NCBI GenBank assembly: GCA_041576165.1
Contig: JBFGLM010000093.1
Location: 1-11,230, forward strand
Length of the DNA stretch: 11,230 nucleotides
Reading direction: 5' to 3'
Source of the DNA: Acidimicrobiia bacterium
Lineage (GTDB): Bacteria > Actinomycetota > Acidimicrobiia > Spongiisociales > Spongiisociaceae
The stretch's first letter is position 1. Every line of letters begins with the position of its first letter. The notes under the pieces are model-generated. The model was not told the DNA's origin. It did no database searches and saw only the letters and a list, made by a program, of their open reading frames with translations. Shown piece by piece: positions 1 to 11,230 of this stretch. Both the position numbers and the translations under genes were made by a program.

Positions 1-1533
1 GGTGTCCTCCAGCAATGCCTTGTGGGCGAACAGCTTGCCGCCGGCACGGCCCCGTACCGTGATCGGCACCTTCCACAGGGTCTGGTCGGTCTCATCGGGG
101 ATCAGCAGGAAGCGACGCTGGGACAGTTCGATTCCACCACCGACCGCAGCGGCGTCGATCACCGGGTAGCCGCCCTGCAGGATCCACGTATCCATGATCT
201 CGCCGACCGGCTCGCCCGACGCCTCATTCAGCGCAGCCCACAGGTCCTCGGTTTCGGTGTTCCCGAATCGGTGGGCCCGCAGGTAGGCGCCGACCCCGGC
301 CCGGAAGAACTGCTCGCCCAGGTACTGCTCGATCATCCGCAGCACCGATGAACCTTTGCCATAGGTGAGGGCGTCGAACATCTCGTTGGCCTCGTCGGGC
401 GAGTTGACCTCGAACTCGACCGGGCGGGTGTTGGCCAGCGCGTCCACCCCGAACGCCCAAGGGCGTTCCACCGCGCCGAATGCCACCCACCGCTTCCAGT
501 CGGGCCGGCGGGCATCCGTGGCTTTGGTCTCCATGAAGGTGGCGAACGCCTCGTTCAGCCAGATGCCGTTCCACCATTTCATCGTCACCAGGTCGCCGAA
601 CCACATGTGGGCCAGCTCGTGGGCGATGACGTCCAGCACCCGCAGCAGCTCCTGCTGGGTGGCGGTCGCCGGGTCGACCAGCAGCGCCGTCTCCCGGTAG
701 GTGATGCAGCCCAGGTTCTCCATCGCCCCGAAGGCGAAGTCGGGAATGGCCACCATGTCCACCTTGTCGCCCGGGTAGGGGATGCCGTAGTACTCGGCTA
801 GGTAGTTCAGGCAGAACTCGCCGGACTCGAGCGCAAACTCGGTGAGGTGTTTCTTGCCTTTCGGGGCAATGACTCGCAGCGGCACGCCGTTGACGTCGAC
901 CGGGTCGGTGGCTTCGAAGGGGCCGACCACGAATGCCACCAGGTAGGTGGACATCTTGATCGTGTCCGCGTAGGTGATCGCCACCTTGCCGTCGCCCACA
1001 TCGACCCGCTCCACTTCGGCCCCGTTGGAGACCGCCAGCAGGTCGCCGGGCACCACCAGGGTGACACCGACCACGGCTTTGAGATCGGGTTCGTCCCAGC
1101 AAGGGAAGGCCCGCCGGGCGTCGGTCGCCTCGAACTGGGTGGTGGCGATGACCTGCTCGTTGCCCGCCACATCGGTATAGGTGGAGCGGTAGAAACCGTG
1201 CAGCTGGTCGTTGAGGACGCCGGTGAATCCGCAGTACACCTGCCACTCGCCGGGGAGGATCTCCTGGTCGAGGGTGAGCGTGGCCCGCTGCGCTTCCTCG
1301 TCGTAGCTCACCGACGCTTCGACGTGCTCGCCCCCCTCGTTGCGCAGATGCGCTTCGTAGATGTCCAGTTCGATGGCGTTGAGGGTGATGCTGGTCGTCG
1401 CCTCATCGACCGTGACGTCCACGATCTCCGAACCGGCAAACGTCGCGCCCGCCAGGTCCGGCTCCAGCCGGATCTGATAACGGTGGGGGATGACATGGCG
1501 CGGCAGGCGGTAAGGGTGGGCGGATTCCACCAT
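1..1533 (-). CDS. pepN: M1 family zinc aminopeptidase (aminopeptidase N / puromycin-sensitive-like), 3' end beyond the left edge
   Basis: Absent from the ORF track because it is open at the edge. Manual translation from ATG 1533: MVESAHPYRLPRHVIPHRYQIRLEPDLAGATFAGSE...TQFEATDARRAFPCWDEP...DFAFGAMENLGCITYRE...VIAHELAHMWFGDLVTMKWWNGIWLNEAFATFME. This contains the GAMEN motif and the HEXXH-x18-E zinc motif. Alternative in-frame starts are ATG 1542 and GTG 1530. Confidence 0.95.
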   Translation of the reverse strand, partial: MVESAHPYRLPRHVIPHRYQIRLEPDLAGATFAGSEIVDVTVDEATTSITLNAIELDIYEAHLRNEGGEHVEASVSYDEEAQRATLTLDQEILPGEWQVYCGFTGVLNDQLHGFYRSTYTDVAGNEQVIATTQFEATDARRAFPCWDEPDLKAVVGVTLVVPGDLLAVSNGAEVERVDVGDGKVAITYADTIKMSTYLVAFVVGPFEATDPVDVNGVPLRVIAPKGKKHLTEFALESGEFCLNYLAEYYGIPYPGDKVDMVAIPDFAFGAMENLGCITYRETALLVDPATATQQELLRVLDVIAHELAHMWFGDLVTMKWWNGIWLNEAFATFMETKATDARRPDWKRWVAFGAVERPWAFGVDALANTRPVEFEVNSPDEANEMFDALTYGKGSSVLRMIEQYLGEQFFRAGVGAYLRAHRFGNTETEDLWAALNEASGEPVGEIMDTWILQGGYPVIDAAAVGGGIELSQRRFLLIPDETDQTLWKVPITVRGRAGGKLFAHKALLEDT

Positions 1534-1596
1534 GCTCCTCATATCGGAAGGGCGCCCGATGGTACTAAGGCCGGTGCCCATACTTGACGGACGCCG

Positions 1597-2151
1597 TCAA
1601 TCTGAGAAGTCGATCCACCTCTCGGTTTCGATCCCCAACCCGTCGGCGATCCGGTTGGCGTAGGCGTAGTAGGCGACGACCTCGGCGATATCGAGCACAT
1701 CCCGGTCGCTGAACCCGGCCTCGGTCAGCTGCCCCACATCCCGCCGGGTCATGGCCCACGGGGCGCGGGTGAGTTTCTCGGCGTAACGCAGCATCGCCTT
1801 CCGCTCGTCGGAGATGTCCGCCGTCGCGAAATCGGATTCGATTGCCGCCACCAGCTCGTCGTCTTTGAGCAGCCGGCGCAGACCGCGCCGGTGGTGCTCC
1901 ACTCAGTAATGACAGTGGTTGGCGATCGACACCACCAGGGCGACCATCTCTCGTTCGACCTTGCGGAGCGACGGGGTGCCCGTCATCACCTCTCGGTAGA
2001 GCTCATAGTGGGTGCGCAGGCCCTCGGGATGAAGCGAGTGGATCGTCATTATGTGATCCACCCGTCCGGTGGCGGGATCGGCGGTCCGCTCGTACAGCTC
2101 CTTGACCTCGCCGTCGGCGGCGTCTTCGGGGATGGTCTCGATCCAGGCCAT
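1597..2151 (-). CDS. AhpD/carboxymuconolactone-decarboxylase-like peroxidase-related enzyme, probable selenoprotein (184 aa, Sec at TGA 1905-1903)
   Basis: ORFs 1903..2151 and 1597..1902 are in the same frame and separated only by TGA. The joined product reads ...REMVALVVSIANHCHY-U-VEHH...LRYAEKLT..P...TRRDVGQLTEAGFSDRDVLDIAEVVAYYAYANRIADGLG, a continuous peroxidase-related AhpD-fold sequence with CxxU in place of CxxC. Confidence 0.88.
1867..1899 (-). promoter_or_regulatory. Putative bacterial SECIS stem-loop immediately 3' of the in-frame UGA
   Basis: The mRNA after UGA reads GUG GAGCA CCA CCGGCGC GGUCU GCGCCGG C UGCUC. It forms a perfect 7-bp upper stem, a 5-bp lower stem and a GGUCU loop that begins after 18 nt from the UGA. 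Confidence 0.8.
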
Positions 2152-2211: not shown

Positions 2212-3204
2212 ATGGCTCGAGACTTGCTACCACTCAGGTTCGATCCTGTGCTCGTCCCCAAGCCGTGGGGCGGGCGGCGTCTTGCCGCCTACGGCAAGAC
2301 GCTGCCACCCGGTGAGCGCGTCGGGGAGAGCTGGGAGATCGCCGACCTGCCGGCCGCCGCAGTGACCAGCTCCAACCAGAGCCGCGGCTTGGTGGCCGGC
2401 GGCCCCTTCGCTGGCCGGACCTTGCGGGACCTGATCGAGGCCCACGGCGCGGACCTGATGGGCCACGTCGCGCCGACGCCGGGCGGGGACTTCCCGCTGC
2501 TGGTGAAGCTGCTCGACGCCCGCGAGCACCTGTCGGTGCAGGTCCACCCCACCGCCGACCACGTCGCCGCCCATCCAGGCTCGTGGCTCAAGACCGAATC
2601 GTGGTACGTGGTCGATGCCGAGCCGGGGGCGGTGCTGTACAAGGGTGCTCGTCCCGGGGTCACCCACGCCGATCTGGCCGCAGCTGCCGGCACCAAGGAC
2701 ATGGTCGAGCTCCTCGCCTCATACGATGCGGTGCCGGGCGACTTCCACCATCTGCCCGCCGGGATCCTCCACGCCCTCGGCGCGGGCGTCATGGTGGCCG
2801 AGATCCAGACGCCGTCGGACACCACCTTCCGTCTCTACGACTGGACTGGGGAATACGGGCGGGCGCCCCGCGAGCTTCACGTCGAGGAGGCTCTGGCTGC
2901 CGTCGAGCTGGCTCCAGAGGGCGCCGTGTTCCTGGGTCCCCTGACCGGGCACGGCTCCCGCACGCTCATTGAGACGGAGCATTACTGGATGGTCGAGCAC
3001 CGCCACGACCACGGCACCGAGCCGCTGACCCGCGCCGCCGAGCTGCGGGTGCTGCTGGTGACCAGGGGAAGTGTCCGCGTGGGATGGGACGGCGGCGACT
3101 TCGAAGTGGCGTCCGGCGGGACCGTGCTGATCCCGGCGGTGTGCGCGCCCGAAGTGGAAGTGGCGGTCGTCGAACCCGGTGTGATCCTGGAGATTGGTAT
3201 CTAG
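2212..3204 (+). CDS. manA: Class I mannose-6-phosphate isomerase (short cupin type, 330 aa)
   Basis: Motifs KPWGG, GESWE, FPLLVKLLDAREHLSVQVHP, KTESWY, GDFHHLPAGILHALG, EIQTPSDTTFRLYDW and RELH. The start was moved to ATG 2212 because the longer ORF from 1891 overlaps the AhpD-like gene on the opposite strand. Confidence 0.88.
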   Translation: MARDLLPLRFDPVLVPKPWGGRRLAAYGKTLPPGERVGESWEIADLPAAAVTSSNQSRGLVAGGPFAGRTLRDLIEAHGADLMGHVAPTPGGDFPLLVKLLDAREHLSVQVHPTADHVAAHPGSWLKTESWYVVDAEPGAVLYKGARPGVTHADLAAAAGTKDMVELLASYDAVPGDFHHLPAGILHALGAGVMVAEIQTPSDTTFRLYDWTGEYGRAPRELHVEEALAAVELAPEGAVFLGPLTGHGSRTLIETEHYWMVEHRHDHGTEPLTRAAELRVLLVTRGSVRVGWDGGDFEVASGGTVLIPAVCAPEVEVAVVEPGVILEIGI

Positions 3205-3806
3205 AGCCGGTGCTGTTCGATCAACAGCCGGGCCAGTCCCTGGGCCCGCCGGGCAGCGTCGCGGTCGCCCTCACCGGCCTGGACTATCGAGCCTTTCATC
3301 AGGATGTGCCACGACAAAGCGAAAGTGGCCGGGTCGCGCAAGTTGGCCTCCTCGGCCAGGGTGCGGACCACGGTGCGGATGTTCTCGAGGTGGGCGGCGG
3401 ACGCCCGACCGAGGGGATGGTCGTGCCCGCCGCCGAATTCGAGCAAGACGTTGACGAATGAGCAGCCCTCGAAGTCGGTGCGTTGGAACCACTCGTCGAA
3501 AAGGTCGAAGATGGCCAGCAGCTGGTCCTCGGGAGTGGCCCCCCTCTTGCGGGCTTCGGCCTCCACCCATCCCTTGGTCCAGACCTGCTCCCGCTGCTGC
3601 AAGAAGGCGAACACGAGGTCATCCTTGGAGGGGAAGTGGTGATAGAAAGTCGCCTTGGCCACGCCGGCCTGCTCGATCAACTCGTTGACTCCGACCGAAC
3701 GAATCCCCCGGCGCGAGAACAACTCGTAGGCGGCGTCGACGATGCGCTGGCGCGCGCTCGCGGACCTCGCAGTGGTCTCTGGCAGTGACATCTCGCAGGA
3801 AAACAT
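3201..3806 (-). CDS. TetR/AcrR family transcriptional regulator
   Basis: N-terminal HTH: ARQRIVDAAYELFSRRGIRSVGVNELIEQAGVAKATFYHHFPSKDDLV. C-terminal domain contains FEGCSFVN. Its stop overlaps the convergent manA stop (CTAG, 3201-3204). Alternative start ATG 3791. Confidence 0.95.
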   Translation of the reverse strand: MFSCEMSLPETTARSASARQRIVDAAYELFSRRGIRSVGVNELIEQAGVAKATFYHHFPSKDDLVFAFLQQREQVWTKGWVEAEARKRGATPEDQLLAIFDLFDEWFQRTDFEGCSFVNVLLEFGGGHDHPLGRASAAHLENIRTVVRTLAEEANLRDPATFALSWHILMKGSIVQAGEGDRDAARRAQGLARLLIEQHRL

Positions 3807-3866: not shown

Positions 3867-4247
3867 TTGAACAGACCGACACTGATCGAGGGTGATCCCG
3901 AGATCCGGGTGGCTGTGGAGGATCGGGTCGCTGTGGTGTTACTGCGCGGCGATCACGACATCGCCACCGTCGACGACTTCCGCGACACCATCGTCCGGCT
4001 GCAGAAACGCGGCAATAACGTCCTGGTTGACCTGAGCCATGCCACGTTCGTCGACTGCGCCACCATCCACGTGCTCGAAGAGAGCTGCCGCCTGGCCGAG
4101 CGGCTCGGATTGACTTTCGCTGTCCAATCAGGCCGGCATCCGAAGGTGCGGCAGCTGCTCGACCTCATCGATTTTCCATGCCACGACACCCGCGACGCAG
4201 CTATGGCGGCGCTGGCGAGCTTCCACTCGCTGCCACGGCCGGCGTAG
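3867..4247 (+). CDS. STAS-domain anti-sigma factor antagonist
   Basis: VVLLRGDHDIATVDDFR...VLVDLSHATFVDCATIHVL...KVRQLLDL matches the SpoIIAA/RsbV pattern. TTG start preceded by the SD-like GAAAGGG (3853-3859). Confidence 0.85.
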   Translation: MNRPTLIEGDPEIRVAVEDRVAVVLLRGDHDIATVDDFRDTIVRLQKRGNNVLVDLSHATFVDCATIHVLEESCRLAERLGLTFAVQSGRHPKVRQLLDLIDFPCHDTRDAAMAALASFHSLPRPA

Positions 4248-4892: not shown

Positions 4893-5522
4893 TCAGAGGA
4901 ACGAGGCGACGATCAGCATTTGGCCGGCGTGGTAGGTGGTCATGATGGCCAGCCGGCCGCGGCGGATCGGCCGCACGAACCGGTTCCAGGCAATCAGCGC
5001 ATCCGAGAGGTAGAACAACAGAGCCCCAACGGCTGCGGTCCAGCTTCCCCGCCCGAGCGCCGCCACCACCATCCCCGAGATCGCGACGACATAGGCTGCC
5101 ACCGGACCGGTCATGGCCGGCTCGGTTTGGCGGACGGCGGCGAGGATGCGGCGGCCCAGGGTCGCCACCAGCACGGCGACGACGGCCAGGCCTGCGACAG
5201 CGCCCGGCCCGCCGGTGCCGGCTAAGAGGAACGCCACGATGTAGGCCAGGTGGGCGCCGAGGAAGGCCGCCAGCCCGGTCACGAACGCCGTCGGATGATG
5301 CGACAACAACAACGCGTCGCCTGCCAGCGACAGCAGGAGGCCCACCAGCAGCCAGCGATGGGCAGGTTCCTCGACGCCAAGCAGAATGCCGGTGGCGATG
5401 ATCAAGGCGACCAGCGTGAGCGGCTTGGCTAACAGCTCCAGCCGCCGACGGTCTCGGGCGACCGCCCACCAGTCGACCGCCGCCACCACGACTACCACAG
5501 TGAACAACCCGGCCGTGCGCAT
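4893..5522 (-). CDS. YhhN/TMEM86 family lysoplasmalogenase-like membrane protein (209 aa)
   Basis: Family motifs AKPL, SLAGDALL, FVTGLAAFLGAHLAY, VAAY, LFYLSDALIAWNRF and TYHAGQ, with multiple TM helices. Start placed at ATG 5522. Confidence 0.88.
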   Translation of the reverse strand: MRTAGLFTVVVVVAAVDWWAVARDRRRLELLAKPLTLVALIIATGILLGVEEPAHRWLLVGLLLSLAGDALLLSHHPTAFVTGLAAFLGAHLAYIVAFLLAGTGGPGAVAGLAVVAVLVATLGRRILAAVRQTEPAMTGPVAAYVVAISGMVVAALGRGSWTAAVGALLFYLSDALIAWNRFVRPIRRGRLAIMTTYHAGQMLIVASFL

Positions 5523-5574
5523 CGGGCGGATACGGTAACGGAATGTCAGGTCCCGCTGCTCGGTATCGTCTGCG

Positions 5575-5712
5575 GTGGTGAACCAGCGACTACTGGATGC
5601 GGCGCGGGAGGCGACCCGGACGGCGCTCGGTGACGCCCGCTTCCAGGCACTACTCGACGAGGGCGCCATCACCGAATGGGATGAGCTGCCGGTCGCGAGC
5701 CTGGCCGGTTGA
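5575..5712 (+). CDS. Small ORF (45 aa) or gene remnant: MVNQRLLDAAREATRTALGDARFQALLDEGAITEWDELPVASLAG
   Basis: Below the ORF track length cut-off. Mostly G/C third positions, and TATCGT (TANNNT) lies 5 nt before the GTG. It resembles the C-terminal 'R.ALG...F......G' tail of actinobacterial ATPase/TPR regulators. Confidence 0.4.
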   Translation: MVNQRLLDAAREATRTALGDARFQALLDEGAITEWDELPVASLAG

Positions 5713-5779: not shown

Positions 5780-5917
5780 GTGCGTTTTGCTCGTTGGGGT
5801 CTGGCCATGATTGTTCCCGTGCTGTGGCGCAACCGGCACCGGGTCGCCGAGTGGTTCAACCGCGACACCAAGACCCAGAACGATCCGGACCCGTCGGAGG
5901 GAGCCGACCAGCCCTGA
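5780..5917 (+). CDS. Small protein (45 aa): MRFARWGLAMIVPVLWRNRHRVAEWFNRDTKTQNDPDPSEGADQP
   Basis: Strong SD GGAGGT (5770-5775) before GTG 5780, GC-rich third positions in the 3' part, and a hairpin directly downstream. Confidence 0.5.
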   Translation: MRFARWGLAMIVPVLWRNRHRVAEWFNRDTKTQNDPDPSEGADQP

Positions 5918-5923
5918 CCCGAG

Positions 5924-5994
5924 CCTTAGGCTGTGGGGTCCCTCTGGGGTACCCCACAGCCGAAAGTTGCCGGTGGGGGGGTTCGGCCCGGTCG
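5924..5994 (+). repeat. Left copy of a ~70-bp imperfect inverted repeat with an internal palindrome
   Basis: CCTTAGGCTGTGGGGTCCCTCTGGGGTACCCCACAGCCGAAAGTT matches the reverse complement of 6952-6996 at 34 of 45 positions without gaps, followed by shared GGGTTC and CCCGGTCG blocks. Internal 11-bp stem 5929-5939/5951-5961. Confidence 0.7.
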
Positions 5995-6023
5995 GCATGA
6001 GCCCCGATTCCCACCTGGCCGGA

Positions 6024-6875
6024 TCAGCTGCAGTTGCCGTACTGGTCGATCAGCCGGGTGCCGTTCATGCAGTCGATCAGTTCCTGCTCGCGGGATGTGA
6101 CGTCGGGCGGTGGAGTGCCGCCGGGCACGGCCAGTCGCCAGGGGTACCGCGTGTCCCAAATGAGGACGGAGACGAGTTCGCCCGAGGAATCGAAGCCCCG
6201 CGACATCGGGAATCCGCCGTCGCCGAACCCGTTGGAAAAGACCAAGGTGTCGATGCCGGGCGTCCCGTCGTAGTCGCCCAGCTCATAGTCGGCGCCGAAA
6301 TCGGGGTCCTCGATGAAGAACTCATCGTCAGTGGGGTTGGCTGCAGCCCAGTCGATCACCGCTTGGCTGGTGACGCCGCCCACCCCGCCGTCGGTCCCAT
6401 ACGCCAATTCGAAGTGGCTCCACCGGTCCACCGTGGAACCCTCCACGTCGAGCCGCACGCCCAGCACGCTTTCAAACACCTCGCCGTCTCGCGGGGTCCG
6501 CTCCCAGACGATGCTGACGTGGAGGACTTCTGTGTCGGCGAAGTCAACGGCCGTTGCCTCGTCGCCGAAATACCCCGGATCCACCTGGATCGCGTTCCCG
6601 TCCATGATCCTCACTTGACCGCCGGCGAAATGCATCTCCGTCAGAAAACGGGTCTCTGCCGTGCGGCCGCGTAGTTCCCATCGACTGTCGTAGGGTTGGC
6701 CGTCGGGGTCGAGTGTTATCCCCAGATCCTCGGCGGAAGTGGGTGCCATGTACGGCTCGATGGTGGTCGGCGCCGCAGGGCGGGAGGCATCGCTGCTCGA
6801 GCAGCCCGCACCCAAGACCGCGACGGCCAATACGACTCCCGACAGCAAGCGGGGCCGGCAGACACGGATCGGCAT
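6024..6875 (-). CDS. Putative lipoprotein with DUF4241-like domain (283 aa)
   Basis: Basic N-terminus, hydrophobic core and lipobox-like VLGAG|C, then a Ser/Pro/Thr linker. The motifs AYGTDGGVGG and VFSNGFGDGGFPMSRGFDSSGELVSVLI resemble DUF4241 (YGVDxG ... FSSGxGDGxYP). The start codon is uncertain. Confidence 0.65.
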   Translation of the reverse strand: MPIRVCRPRLLSGVVLAVAVLGAGCSSSDASRPAAPTTIEPYMAPTSAEDLGITLDPDGQPYDSRWELRGRTAETRFLTEMHFAGGQVRIMDGNAIQVDPGYFGDEATAVDFADTEVLHVSIVWERTPRDGEVFESVLGVRLDVEGSTVDRWSHFELAYGTDGGVGGVTSQAVIDWAAANPTDDEFFIEDPDFGADYELGDYDGTPGIDTLVFSNGFGDGGFPMSRGFDSSGELVSVLIWDTRYPWRLAVPGGTPPPDVTSREQELIDCMNGTRLIDQYGNCS

Positions 6876-6927
6876 CCAACAGCCATCGGCCGTGCACCAC
6901 TCTTGCCTGAGCCGATTGCCCACTTCG

Positions 6928-6996
6928 CGACCGGGGGAACCCGACCCGCCGAACTCTCGGCTGGAGGGTCCCCTCAGGGGTCCTCAGAGCCTAAGG
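6928..6996 (-). repeat. Right copy of the ~70-bp imperfect inverted repeat
   Basis: Reverse complement CCTTAGGCTCTGAGGACCCCTGAGGGGACCCTCCAGCCGAGAGTT...GGGTTCCCCCGGTCG. It keeps the GGCT/AGCC and CCCC/GGGG hairpin. Confidence 0.7.
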
Positions 6997-7026
6997 AACG
7001 CCGTCCCCCCGCACCAAAAATGCACC

Positions 7027-7055
7027 TTGAATGGGCGCGCGAGCCGGAATATGTT
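7027..7055 (+). promoter_or_regulatory. Sigma70-type promoter TTGAAT-N17-TATGTT
   Basis: -35 at 7027-7032, -10 at 7050-7055, 17-bp spacer, A-tract upstream. Confidence 0.55.
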
Positions 7056-7061
7056 TGAGGT

Positions 7062-7300
7062 ATCGACCAGTATCGGCGAGTGGTCGAGAAAGGAGTCTGG
7101 CTTAGGGATCGAATCCGGCCATGACGGGTATGGCCGAGATTCAGCAGGCAGCCAACGCAGTGGCTGTGCCGCTGTGTCGGCGACCGAAGAAGGGAGACGA
7201 TCCTTCCAAGTTGGACAGTTAGATATGTAAGGCTGCACGCCCGCCAGTGGGTGTGCGGTTTCGGAGCGAGCCCCCGAGTATCCAACGCTCGGGGGCTCCG
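7062..7300 (+). ncRNA. Candidate structured small RNA (or mRNA for a 33-aa peptide at 7121..7222)
   Basis: Lies between the predicted promoter and a terminator-like hairpin and is tiled by successive stem-loops. No known RNA family recognised. Confidence 0.35.
7268..7298 (+). terminator. Terminator-like hairpin
   Basis: Perfect 11-bp stem GAGCCCCCGAG / CTCGGGGGCTC with a 9-nt loop and no clear U-tract. Confidence 0.6.
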
Positions 7301-7342
7301 TCGTGCACAGCCGACCGATGCGCAATCGCTGGGGCTGCATTG

Positions 7343-7372
7343 GGAAACGTTTCGGCCCCGCCGAACGTCTAA
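7343..7372 (+). promoter_or_regulatory. Putative ECF sigma factor promoter GGAAAC-N17-CGTCTAA
   Basis: AAC-type -35 and CGT-type -10 elements typical of ECF promoters, about 50 bp upstream of GTG 7420. Confidence 0.5.
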
Positions 7373-7419
7373 TCGGCACACACCGGCAAATACGCCGCCT
7401 CTTCCGACAAGGAGCGATT

Positions 7420-8025
7420 GTGCTAACAGCAATCCGGCGAGGCGTCTGGTTCGGCACCGCCCTCGCAATGGCTCTGGTCCTATTGACAGCCGGCCCGGCC
7501 CACGCTTCGTGCGCCGAGCCGATCCCCATCGATCAGTCACTCGCCGAAGCCGAGACCGTGTTCGTCGGCACCGTGACCGGCCTCGACTTCGCCGGACGGG
7601 TGGCGACCTTCGAAGTGCAGGAGGTCTGGAAAGGTGACGTCGAGGCCCAGGTGGTCGTGAACGGTGGTCCGGCCCTGGCCGAGCTACGGGCAGCCCGTGC
7701 CCAAGGTCAGGACGTCGCCACCTCGGTCGACCGCACCTACGAGTTCGGCGTGCAATACCTCGTCGTATCGCACGGTTCGGACGGCTCCGCCTTGGCAGAC
7801 AACTCTTGCTCCAACACCCAGCCCTACACGGACGAGCTCGATCAGTACCGCCCGGCTTCGGCGCATGTGCCCGAGCCGTTGCCGCCGACCGTCCAGGTGG
7901 AGACCGCCGACGAGGGCCTCAATGTCTGGTTGTTGGTGGGTCTGGCCGTCGCGGCTGTGGGCGTGGTCGGAGCGATCACGGCGATAGCGGTGCGCCGTCG
8001 CCGCCAGCCGTCCGAACCGGTCTGA
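7420..8025 (+). CDS. Secreted, C-terminally membrane-anchored protein with TIMP/NTR-like domain (201 aa)
   Basis: SD AAGGAG (7409-7414) and GTG 7420. Signal peptide ending AHA|SC. Motifs AETVFVGTV, FEVQEVWKG, YLVVS and NSCSNT. Pro-rich linker, TM helix and RRRR stop-transfer. Confidence 0.65.
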   Translation: MLTAIRRGVWFGTALAMALVLLTAGPAHASCAEPIPIDQSLAEAETVFVGTVTGLDFAGRVATFEVQEVWKGDVEAQVVVNGGPALAELRAARAQGQDVATSVDRTYEFGVQYLVVSHGSDGSALADNSCSNTQPYTDELDQYRPASAHVPEPLPPTVQVETADEGLNVWLLVGLAVAAVGVVGAITAIAVRRRRQPSEPV

Positions 8026-8274
8026 ACGGGTTTGATCGGCCGCTCGACTACCGCGGGCGGCCGTATCCCGGTCATCCCCAGGGCCGGCTCAGCCCGCGTG
8101 AGAAACCGTCTTCTGGCCCCGCCGAAATCGCCGAAATTCTCTCTAGTCAGCCCCGGCGGGCGGGCGTACGATCCGCGCGTCAATTGGAACCACGGTGGCC
8201 TCGCGATAGCCGCTCCGCCGCCAGCGACCACCGGGGCTCTCTCCGCCGTATTCGCGGCGCAAGGAGGTGGATTG

Positions 8275-8673
8275 ATGGCCGTAGCGACGGCGATCGATTT
8301 CCAGGCCGAAGCCAAGAGGCTCTGGGACCTGTTCGACCGGCTCGAAATGGACGAGATGAAGGAGATGTTCGCGGACGACTTTCAAGGCGTCGACGAGCTT
8401 TCCCGCAAATGGATGCGGGGGAAGTCCGCCATCGAGGATTACATGAAGCAGCTCCAGGAGATGGGGATCGGCGACATCCACAGCAAGCTGAGCGACATGG
8501 CGACCAAACACTGGGATGACATAGCCCTGGTGACGTGCATGGCGGATCAGACCTACTCGCTGGGTGGAGAACAGGTCACGATCACAGCGCCCGTTTCTGT
8601 GCTGTTCCGTCACATCAATGGGGACTGGAAGATCGAGATGGTGCAGGCCGTACCTCTCTCGGAAGAAGGCTGA
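8275..8673 (+). CDS. SnoaL-like / NTF2-fold (DUF4440-like) protein (132 aa)
   Basis: Perfect SD AAGGAGGTG (8261-8269). Pattern MFADDF...RGKSAI...DDIALV...SVLFRHINGDWKIEMVQ is typical of the NTF2-like fold. Confidence 0.8.
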   Translation: MAVATAIDFQAEAKRLWDLFDRLEMDEMKEMFADDFQGVDELSRKWMRGKSAIEDYMKQLQEMGIGDIHSKLSDMATKHWDDIALVTCMADQTYSLGGEQVTITAPVSVLFRHINGDWKIEMVQAVPLSEEG

Positions 8674-8800: not shown

Positions 8801-10687
8801 ATGTTTCGCTTGTTCCGCCAGGACCGTACTCTCGCGCCGATGCAAGCCGAACGACAGGTCCCGCCCGAGGATGTTGCGCTGTTGGGTCGCGGCCGGGACC
8901 TGATCATCCGCCAGCTCAAGCGGGCGCCGGCGGAATTCGCCGTCGGTGGTGCCGGGGCCATGCTGTTCGCGGCAATGACGATCGTTTCGTCATACGTCGT
9001 CGGGTGGGTCACCGACTCGGTCCTGCTGCCGGCGGTGGCGGCGGGCGAGGTTGCGGCCGCCACGCTCATCGGAGCGGTGGCGGCGCTGGTAGGGGTGTCG
9101 GCGGCGAAGGCGATCGGCATCACCCTGCGCCGGGTCGGCGCGTATTTCGCCTCCTACCGGCTGCAGTACCGGGACAGAATCGAAGTCACCGACAAGTACC
9201 TCGAGCTGCCGGTCGAATGGCACCGGCGCCATTCCACCGGCCAGCTGCTGGCCAATACCAACGAGGACGTCGAAGCGGCTGCGTTCGTTGCGGCGCCGCT
9301 GCCGCTGTCCTTCGGCGTCGTGATCCTGCTGATCGTGACCGGGATCCTGCTCATCATCACCGACCCATTCCTGGCCCTCATCGGCTTCTCCGTGGGTCCG
9401 GCGCTCATCTTCATCAACTACACCTACCAGCGCCGGATGCGCCAGGTCGCCGCCAGGGCGCAGCGGCTCCGGGCCGAGGTGGCCGACATCGCCCACGAAT
9501 CGTTCGACGCGGCGCTGGTGGTCAAGACCCTTGGACGGGAAGGCGCCGAGGTGGGCCGGTTCGGCGAGCGGTCGGAAGAGCTCCGGGACCGGATGGTCGA
9601 GGTCGGGCGGTTGCGGGCCGCGTTTGATCCGTTCATCGAGGCGCTGCCCAACATCGGCATCCTGGCTGTGCTGGCCGTCGGCGCCTGGCGGGTGTCACGA
9701 GGAGCGCTCACGGCCGGCGACTTGGTGACCTTCGCCTACCTGTTCGGCTTGATAGCCCTTCCCATGCGGGTGTTCGGCTGGCTGCTGGGAGAGCTGCCCC
9801 GCTCGGTTGTGGGCATGGACCGGGTCGAAGCTGTATTGCGCGAGGACGCCCGGGTCGAATATGGAGCGGCCAGCCCGACGCAGCATGGCGGGGCGTCCGC
9901 CGCTGCGCAGGCTGTCGGCTACCTCTACCCCGAATCCGAGTACGAAGATCTGGGCGGATCCTCGACTCAGGTCGCCCGGGACGCGGGAGGCGATGACGGG
10001 GACCGGCGCGGCATCGAGTCCGTCACCCTCCAGGTGGGTGCCGGGCGCACCGTGGCACTGGTCGGTCCCACGGGATCGGGGAAGTCCACCATCGCCCATC
10101 TGCTGGCCCGCCTCTTTGATCCCGACAGCGGAGAGATCTGCCTCGACGGGCACGGCCTGGTCGATCTCGACCGCACCGCCCTGGCCGGGACCGTCAGCAT
10201 CGTCTTCCAGGAGACGTTCCTGTTCAACGACACCGTCTACAACAACATCACGCTCGGCGAGCCGTTCGAGGAGGCCGATGTGATGGCGGCGGCGAAGCTC
10301 GCCGAGGCGCACGACTTCATCACCGCCCTCGTTGACGGGTACGGCACGGTCGTCGGAGAACGGGGGGCATCGCTGTCCGGCGGCCAGCGCCAGCGCATCG
10401 CTCTGGCCCGAGCACTGGTCCGCCGGCCCCGGCTGCTGGTTCTGGACGACGCCACGTCGGCGGTCGACCCGGCGGTCGAGAGCCGCATCCTGGCCGGACT
10501 GGGCGAGCTGAATACGACCGTCGTGATCGTCGCCTACCGCCGGTCGTCGATCGTGCTGGCCGACGAGGTCATCTTCGTCGAGGACGGCCGCGTCATCGAT
10601 CGTGGCACCCACCCCGAGCTGTACGCCAAGCTGACGGCCTACCGGAACCTGATCGACGCTTACGAACGACAGGAGGAACCGGCATGA
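8801..10687 (+). CDS. ABC exporter, fused permease/ATP-binding subunit (heterodimer partner carrying the degenerate catalytic motifs)
   Basis: N-terminal transmembrane domain, Walker A GPTGSGKST, Q-loop VFQE, signature LSGGQRQR, Walker B LLVLDDAT and switch region VAYR. The true start may be ATG 8840. Confidence 0.95.
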   Translation: MFRLFRQDRTLAPMQAERQVPPEDVALLGRGRDLIIRQLKRAPAEFAVGGAGAMLFAAMTIVSSYVVGWVTDSVLLPAVAAGEVAAATLIGAVAALVGVSAAKAIGITLRRVGAYFASYRLQYRDRIEVTDKYLELPVEWHRRHSTGQLLANTNEDVEAAAFVAAPLPLSFGVVILLIVTGILLIITDPFLALIGFSVGPALIFINYTYQRRMRQVAARAQRLRAEVADIAHESFDAALVVKTLGREGAEVGRFGERSEELRDRMVEVGRLRAAFDPFIEALPNIGILAVLAVGAWRVSRGALTAGDLVTFAYLFGLIALPMRVFGWLLGELPRSVVGMDRVEAVLREDARVEYGAASPTQHGGASAAAQAVGYLYPESEYEDLGGSSTQVARDAGGDDGDRRGIESVTLQVGAGRTVALVGPTGSGKSTIAHLLARLFDPDSGEICLDGHGLVDLDRTALAGTVSIVFQETFLFNDTVYNNITLGEPFEEADVMAAAKLAEAHDFITALVDGYGTVVGERGASLSGGQRQRIALARALVRRPRLLVLDDATSAVDPAVESRILAGLGELNTTVVIVAYRRSSIVLADEVIFVEDGRVIDRGTHPELYAKLTAYRNLIDAYERQEEPA

Positions 10688-11230
10688 CGGCGACCGCCGA
10701 ATCGGCTGCGTCGATCCAGCCGGACCATCGGGGGGCGTGGAACACGGTCAAGCGGGGATTGGCGCTCTCGCCGGAGCTGCGCCGCGGCTTGACGGGCACG
10801 GTCGCGATCGCGCTGCTGGCGACCGCCGGCCGGGTGATCGTGCCGGTGGCGATCCAGCAGATAATCGACCGTGGGCTGTCTGGAGACGAAGTCGATCTCG
10901 GTTTCGTCGCCTGGATGACGGTGGCGGCCCTGGCTGCGGTGGTAGTCACGGCTGTGGCGACCGGCTGGATGCACCTCCGGCTTGCCCGGGTGTCGGAAAC
11001 GGCGCTGTCCGGCCTTCGTATCCGCGCGTTCCGCCACATTCACGACTTGTCGATGCTCCATCAGGCGTCCGAGCAGCGCGGGGTGCTGGTGGCCAGGGTC
11101 ACGTCCGACGTCGATCAAATCAGCCGCTTCATGCAGTGGGCCGGGCTCATGCTGATCGTGAACGCCGGGCAGGCCCTGCTGGCGGTGGCAGTCATGCTGA
11201 TCCTGTCAGTGCCGCTCGGTGTGGTCGTGA
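10684..11230 (+). CDS. Second ABC exporter permease/ATP-binding subunit, truncated by the right edge
   Basis: ATGA overlap with the previous stop. Manual translation: MTATAESAASIQPDHRGAWNTVKRGLALSPELRRGL...VPVAIQQIIDRGL...LRIRAFRHIHDLSMLHQASEQRGVLVARVTSDVDQISRF, a typical ABC transmembrane domain that stays open to the end of the window. Confidence 0.92.
   Translation, partial: MTATAESAASIQPDHRGAWNTVKRGLALSPELRRGLTGTVAIALLATAGRVIVPVAIQQIIDRGLSGDEVDLGFVAWMTVAALAAVVVTAVATGWMHLRLARVSETALSGLRIRAFRHIHDLSMLHQASEQRGVLVARVTSDVDQISRFMQWAGLMLIVNAGQALLAVAVMLILSVPLGVVV

Follow-up and report, generated by a model that had tools for sequence, protein, structure and literature searches.

AhpD-like proteins with selenocysteine (Sec, U) in a CxxU motif are known from bacterial sequence surveys. 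A 2005 survey of the Sargasso Sea reported 27 AhpD-like sequences with CXXU, under COG2128, and drew their selenocysteine insertion sequence (SECIS) elements (PMC1088965), and the 2008 Global Ocean Sampling (GOS) survey counted 299 Sec and 902 Cys sequences of "AhpD-like 1", its fourth most abundant family (PMC2398784). The family appears in the table of a 2026 review as "AhpD-like protein, TIGR01926, CxxU" (PMC13188914) and serves BSepDB as a browsing example (PMC13326102). No biochemical characterisation of a Sec-form AhpD-like protein was found in the accessible portions of the literature on AhpD-like selenoproteins. Here we describe a gene of this family on the minus strand, positions 2151 to 1597, of an 11,230-nucleotide stretch of DNA (the window: contig JBFGLM010000093.1 of assembly GCA_041576165.1, from an Acidimicrobiia bacterium of the order Spongiisociales). 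A preliminary description, made from the letters of the window, had presented the gene as a hidden selenoprotein and had noted that Sec forms of AhpD/CMD-like proteins had been predicted in selenoproteome surveys. The 2005 and 2008 surveys bear out the second statement. The word "hidden" has to be given up, since the family "AhpD-like protein, CxxU" has been catalogued since 2005.

The gene is a well-behaved member of this catalogued selenoprotein family and represents neither a novel class nor a hidden one. It shares with the family the model TIGR01926, the motif, the alternation of Sec and Cys at one column, and a SECIS element inside the open reading frame (ORF) with a G in its apical loop; we see no essential difference, and describe it as a soil or aquatic Acidimicrobiia-type member. 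With family, CxxU motif and SECIS in print since 2005, the locus opens no new question. Its added value lies in a Sec form that is near-fixed order-wide, a clean SECIS with a Cys-revertant control, and truncated halves in public protein sets; it adds a well-supported example, including one Sec-to-Cys reversion, to a family of unknown reaction.

A known relative is mycobacterial AhpD (TIGR00777), an adaptor that reduces AhpC through a relay of Glu118, Cys130, His132, Cys133 and His137 (PMC3141380), in which the cross-link to AhpC is made by the exposed Cys133 (PMC6626918). The spacing of Glu, Cys, Cys and His is identical in the protein described here, but Tyr82 replaces His132 between the redox residues, as in PA0269 (PMC3141380), no ahpC lies nearby, and the motif sits in the middle of a single-domain chain of 184 residues. 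The Cys proteins of solved structure, Mlr4105 (3c1l), 2pfx, 2oyo, 2prr and DR_1765 (6k40), are 25–32% identical to it and have the same E...C-x-Y-C...H layout; they differ in carrying Cys at the Sec position and in having no HHRRGLRRLL stretch.

In Escherichia coli fdhF, 11 nt separate the UGA from the minimal SECIS element, whose apical loop is GGUC; with the UGC that comes next, it encodes G-L. Like elements of the fdhF type, the locus has a hairpin in the coding region directly past the UGA, with its loop at a distance within 16–37 nt; it differs in stem sequence, has no evident bulged U and gives no Rfam match, and binding of SelB to it is predicted.

A single reading frame across an internal UGA

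The preliminary description had noted two abutting ORFs of the same frame parted only by a TGA, with Glu, Cys, the TGA and His at the AhpD offsets, and had proposed that the TGA is read as Sec. On the minus strand, the ATG at 2151-2149 opens a frame that passes a sole internal TGA at 1905-1903 (codon 83) and ends at a terminal TGA at 1599-1597. The complete gene (1597..2151) comprises 184 codons and this terminal TGA, as judged by its translation, its family score and orthologues of the same length. Because an in-frame TAG lies 9 nt 5' of the ATG, the start codon at 2151-2149 is fixed. A mechanical ORF list divides this common frame into 1903..2151 (82 aa) and 1597..1902 (101 aa, from a GTG immediately following the TGA).

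Read through, the text near the break is KVEREMVALVVSIANHCHYU and then VEHHRRGLRRLL, with E68, C80, U83 and H87 at offsets 0/+12/+15/+19. Glu68 (codon 1948..1950), the conserved acid 12 residues ahead of Cys80, and Cys80 itself (TGT, 1912..1914), the partner residue in CxxU, are each invariant in our alignment A3 and present in 66 of 66 loci. The in-frame UGA (1903..1905) would supply the second redox residue of C-H-Y-U, a reading based on the TGA/Cys column in homologues. His87 (1891..1893), four residues past Sec83, is conserved in the locus pattern and in A3, and the last base of its codon is the first base of the hairpin described below. Both the single 184-codon frame and the offsets thus stand as described, and comparison of sequences makes it very probable that 2151..1597 (-) is one gene for a 184-residue AhpD-like (TIGR01926, CMD-fold) selenoprotein.

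Conservation of the UGA among relatives

Homologues had been expected to carry either Cys or a TGA at this column. Matches were obtained in 24 of 41 relatives' genomes, and the 20 loci retrieved all have TGA at the same column within C-x-Y-U (19/19 when L040, from the unpublished genome G039, is left aside). Both halves of the protein are conserved at 60–69% identity in the relatives' loci, with no further stops. A scan of named species genomes gave 26 loci, with TGA at the column in 21 and Cys in 5; the scan was seeded by peptide patterns of the query and is thus a biased sample. Its loci span Acidimicrobiia, Chloroflexi, Bryobacterales, Planctomycetes, Pyrinomonadaceae and others. Across the order, 401 genomes gave 132 matches in 131 genomes (E<=1e-45), and 130 of the 132 contain the TGA; in family f4 it is found in 56 of 59 matches. 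Eighteen order-wide Sec forms, hand-picked for family diversity and low identity, were read as DNA together with the two exceptions, and TGA stood at the column in 18/18 of these Sec forms. Over all 66 loci read (65 distinct, L044 and L078 being on an identical contig), TGA stands at the column in 59, with Cys in a further 6 and Leu in the one left over, in agreement with the expectation, and the motif E-x11-C-x-Y-[U/C/L]-x3-H is kept in every locus. Judged from these sequences, the AhpD-like enzyme appears almost fixed in its Sec form in this order.

The same counts bear on the possibility that the gene is a pseudogene, its TGA having arisen by nonsense mutation in recent times or through a mistake in sequencing or assembly. 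The assembly is fragmented, with 161 contigs, 96.5% completeness and 7.5% contamination, and one relative, L070, has a different codon at the site. However, the TGA is not unique to this assembly, being shared by 130 of 132 order-wide matches, and both halves are conserved without additional stops; we regard this explanation as effectively refuted.

The exceptional locus L070 (G352:C116:191-793), whose protein is P0006 in the public protein set, has TTA (Leu) at the Sec column and an intact hairpin with a compensatory U-A pair. Its Leu codon reflects either inactivation in the very recent past or a fault in the assembly.

A SECIS-type hairpin downstream of the UGA

A SECIS-type hairpin, CCGGCGC-GGUCU-GCGCCGG, occupies 1873..1891 of the minus strand and begins 11 nt past the UGA. 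Its 7-bp stem (1891-1885 / 1879-1873) encloses the loop GGUCU (1884-1880), and the element encodes R88-R-G-L-R-R93. The loop lies 18 nt from the UGA, which agrees with the UGA-to-apical-loop distance of 16–37 nt given for bacterial SECIS elements (PMC10778597), and it contains a G, as the apical loops of such elements do.

An alignment of 42 Sec forms, of which 40 rows are distinct, has 93.6% of its stem cells paired, and loop positions G25 and G26 are invariant. Pair 21-33 is seen as GC, CG, GU, AU and UG and is unpaired in no Sec form. Cells with double changes number 10, a count that none of 500 column shuffles attains (2.3 +/- 1.2); when the register is slid, 23–56% pair. Synonymous sites are frozen as well: mean codon entropy among 24 orthologues is 0.30 bits for five hairpin codons (R,R,G,L,R), whereas elsewhere in the gene 36 conserved codons with 4- to 6-fold degeneracy average 1.57 bits, and the GGT and CTG codons of the hairpin are used in 24/24. 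A further Sec form, L092, has CGT...CTA, a synonymous U-A swap for the closing C-G pair. This hairpin, with its covariation and its frozen synonymous sites, supports the Sec recoding of the UGA that had been proposed. A lower stem, GAGCA/UGCUC, in the minimum-energy fold of the window was dropped, with no apparent recurrence, by eye, in the other aligned sequences.

Cys-form orthologues as a natural control

The sole Cys-form orthologues of the order, L071 (G373), L090 (G435) and L091 (G434), all belong to genus g79. In L071, GGA TTG replaces the otherwise invariant GGT CTG, accompanied by an R-to-Q change, and the hairpin folds at -3.9 kcal/mol, compared to -10 to -14 in neighbouring Sec forms. 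The closing hairpin pair is broken in L090. In L091 the break is in pair 19-35, which 4 of the 40 Sec forms likewise leave open. Hairpin breaks that are found in 0/40 distinct Sec forms thus occur in two of these three orthologues. The RRGLRR peptide is largely kept in all of g79's Cys forms while RNA pairing is eroding differently in each. From the sequences, these defects are probably a relaxation after loss of Sec, a view that this small sample from a single lineage supports rather than proves.

We also considered whether R-R-G-L-R-R (within HHRRGLRRLL), a peptide dictated by the SECIS, has since been co-opted by the protein for a function of its own, with Sec close to obligatory throughout the order. 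Such co-option would explain why RRGLRR persists in the g79 Cys revertants while the RNA pairing decays, though we think it rather unlikely. If true, it would document an RNA signal that shaped, and was then outlived by, a protein motif, and an enzyme with near-obligatory Sec across a whole order of abundant environmental Actinobacteria.

Selenocysteine machinery in the genome

The machinery that the preliminary description had named as a check, selA, selB, tRNA-Sec and selD, is present as a full set, with all genes over their family cut-offs. There are two selA-selB pairs and two tRNA-Sec genes (79.9 and 72.9 bits, anticodon TCA; ARAGORN), and the product of selD is a selenoprotein too, the in-frame TGA of its gene standing within GAGU. 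The assumption that Sec use would be patchy does not apply to this order, in which 39 of 41 relatives have selA above cut-off. Because both sets of machinery come from the same order, the Sec conclusion is independent of contig membership.

The conserved TGA/Cys column, the covarying hairpin and the Sec machinery together leave us highly confident that this UGA is read as Sec. In the proposed mechanism, SelB with Sec-tRNA(Sec) would bind the mRNA hairpin at 1891-1873 and insert Sec at codon 83 instead of terminating, and the terminal TGA at 1599-1597, without a hairpin at SECIS spacing, would stop translation.

Several observations count against Sec insertion directed by this hairpin. An Rfam scan of 1500-2300 (E<=10) returned two chance-level matches and no SECIS family. 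The 69 nt after the UGA fold no better than shuffles (z = -0.96), so that support for the hairpin comes from sequence comparison instead. The Cys-form proteins P0008-P0014 keep the peptide HHRRGLRRLL as well, and the conservation of this stretch must therefore be partly protein-level or inherited, not purely RNA-level. Lastly, the genome G035 carries a close orthologue and gave no selA match, though its tRNA-Sec scores 80.2 bits and is located at a contig start, 721 bases in from the edge.

Other features of Sec metabolism in this genome (G000) were recorded. The first set of machinery lies at G000:C24:55512-58621 and C1:33376-33466, and the second at G000:C100:605-3619 and C145:1292-1384. The two selA copies are mutually 53–55% identical; that on C24 is nearest to genomes of the window's own family (59–65%), and that on C100 is nearest to two other families of the order (58–60%). 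Unlike G000, those of the 40 other relatives with selA over cut-off have one copy each. The second set therefore either entered the bin as contamination (7.5%) or is an additional system acquired by transfer. The selD gene, at G000:C1:171385-172317 (-), has the context HGAGU-ACK, with GGUC-containing hairpins after its UGA. Two paralogues, G000:C15:34911-35444 (-) and G000:C1:68538-69056 (+), are CMD/AhpD-like with 24–31% identity and carry CEYU and CFYU (C-x-Y-U); in the C15 paralogue, the UGA is followed at 16 nt by a 5-bp hairpin whose loop is GGUC.

Recoding of the terminal TGA at 1599-1597 was also considered and rejected: it has no GGUC-loop hairpin at SECIS spacing, and orthologues end in TAA, TAG or TGA. 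The aminopeptidase N ORF downstream shares the frame of this TGA and no stop intervenes, but no SECIS-like hairpin follows the TGA. The shared frame looks coincidental, since TAA is the stop codon of the syntenic locus L023, and TAA or TAG that of other orthologues.

Protein family and predicted fold

Family assignment was made with the read-through protein (P0001), with C standing in for U. Over residues 3-175 of 184 it scores 147.8 bits with the NCBIfam model TIGR01926, "peroxidase-related enzyme", whose cut-off is 81.8, and it matches the Pfam CMD domain PF02627 at 4.6e-14. The score for AhpD proper, TIGR00777, is 17.7 bits, far under its cut-off of 191.95, which places the protein in the TIGR01926 branch and not in AhpD proper. 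The weak TIGR00777 match is free of gaps, with query residues 56-100 on profile positions 106-150, and E68, C80, U83 and H87 fall on 118, 130, 133 and 137. This is consistent with the mapping onto these AhpD positions made in the preliminary description. Only the Pfam domain is held in common with PcaC sensu stricto, and neither the redox motif nor the neighbouring genes (pepN, phosphomannose isomerase (PMI), TetR) hint at a protocatechuate pathway.

Sequence searches retrieved the solved Cys-form relatives 3c1l (1.8e-29), 2pfx, 6k40 (4.6e-22), 2oyo and 2prr, with E-values from 1.8e-29 to 2e-19, and in each of the five a Cys is aligned to the TGA column. An AlphaFold model built with 26 sequences is all-helical, with a predicted local distance difference test (pLDDT) score of 93.9, and superposes on 3c1l, 2prr, 6k40, 2pfx and 2oyo at template modelling (TM) scores of 0.84–0.87. 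Residues 61-100, which span the junction, have pLDDT 94–98. Since a helix of the model begins at residue 81 (helix 81-95), the C-x-x-U motif is placed at a helix N-terminus. The protein thus combines the score of the TIGR01926 family, the all-helical AhpD/CMD fold, and CxxU with its Glu and His (E68, C80, Y82, U83, H87).

Public annotation and other readings of the UGA

The public protein P0007 is the 101-aa C-terminal piece, starting directly after the TGA, from an 11230-base contig, and its presence in the public set means that a gene caller cut the gene at the TGA. The splitting by gene callers that had been anticipated was accordingly found for the C-terminal half. About 93 of the 120 database matches listed are likewise C-terminal halves of 101–116 aa, named "peroxidase-related enzyme". 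Were the TGA a true stop, these pieces would be real: the locus would give separate polypeptides of 82 and 101 aa, the second from the GTG after the stop, exactly as gene callers have it. However, the break lies inside a CxxC motif, at a column that is Cys in homologues and solved structures, and always at that same column. A conserved hairpin follows, the genome has the Sec machinery, and the single-chain model is confident over the junction. We therefore consider termination at this codon very improbable.

Four of the five best full-length entries (P0002-P0005) have W at the Sec column. These could be taken as a sign that a variant code, or near-cognate suppression, places one of the standard amino acids (Trp, Cys or Gly) at the TGA. 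They are most simply explained by gene callers that chose a table in which TGA is Trp. TGA is a stop in these genomes, because the gene and most orthologues end in it; at the column itself homologues have Cys, and a genuine TGG occurs in 0 of the 66 loci read as DNA. With dedicated Sec machinery and a SECIS-type hairpin also present, decoding as a standard amino acid is highly unlikely, and Sec is the preferred reading of the codon. The correct annotation is a single 184-aa selenoprotein. Since public entries are mostly truncated, or bear Trp, they bias the counting of the family, what is concluded about its active site, and any selenoproteome census of Acidimicrobiia-type bacteria.

Proposed function

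By inference from the family, Cys80 and Sec83 would form a redox-active selenenylsulfide pair that cycles with a selenol/thiol state, assisted by Glu68 and His87, and Sec83 would take the place of the exposed attacking Cys133 of mycobacterial AhpD. The enzyme would most likely reduce hydroperoxides directly or re-reduce a peroxiredoxin-type partner, and a thiol donor would return it to its reduced state. Knocking out the homologue DR_1765 (structure 6k40) causes sensitivity to H2O2, and rescue depends on the CxxC (PMC8945050), which hints at a role in peroxide defence. By analogy with these relatives we hold, with moderate confidence, that the reaction is peroxide or peroxiredoxin reduction, and the label "peroxidase" is meant in this inferred sense.

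Some findings speak against this assignment. The fold also houses a debrominase that is not a peroxidase, Bmp8 (ranks 21 and 24, TM 0.76–0.77). No peroxiredoxin domain was found in the 20 window ORFs scanned, with no ahpC nearby, and no conserved redox partner stands beside the gene across 24 orthologous loci. These same findings, together with the true-AhpD score of only 17.7 bits, favour the alternative that the selenoprotein catalyses a reaction other than peroxide reduction: reduction of disulfides or persulfides, service as an adaptor for another reductase, or reductive dehalogenation. The 2026 review, in its entry on the family, states the function as unknown (PMC13188914). On the other side, DR_1765, the nearest homologue with genetics, protects against H2O2 through its CxxC (PMC8945050), and the Glu/Cys/Cys/His relay positions of AhpD are all kept. 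A reaction of this other kind is possible but clearly the less probable choice, and peroxide or peroxiredoxin reduction remains our preferred assignment.

Genomic neighbourhood

Downstream of the selenoprotein gene lies a gene for aminopeptidase N of the M1 family (1..1581, -; PF01433 5.4e-78, PF17900 7.2e-45), which runs off the window and whose start is uncertain among in-frame ATGs at 1581, 1542 and 1533. The divergent neighbour is a type I PMI-like gene (2212..3204, +; PF20511 3.8e-07) whose product starts MARDLLPLRF. A plus-strand ORF of 437 aa from 1891 includes an antisense shadow over the selenoprotein gene (1891-2211); the real start of the PMI-like gene is the ATG at 2212, and 60 nt part it from the selenoprotein gene's own ATG at 2151 on the opposite strand. 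PMI-like homologues adjoin the orthologue in L023 and L033, and the order PMI / AhpD-like / pepN recurs in only these 2 of 23 other loci. Clustering of flanking ORFs from 24 loci gave no partner in more than 4 loci besides the gene itself and shadow ORFs.

Long ORFs that gave no Pfam match lie on both strands between 5672 and 8030, at 5811-6674 (+), 6024-6923 (-), 6974-7540 (-) and 7303-8025 (+). Elsewhere the Pfam scan identified genes for a TetR protein (3201-3806, -), a STAS protein (3867-4247, +), a YhhN protein (4893-5672, -) and a SnoaL-like protein (8032-8673, +), followed by two ABC transporter genes (8801-10687 and 10684-11229, +).

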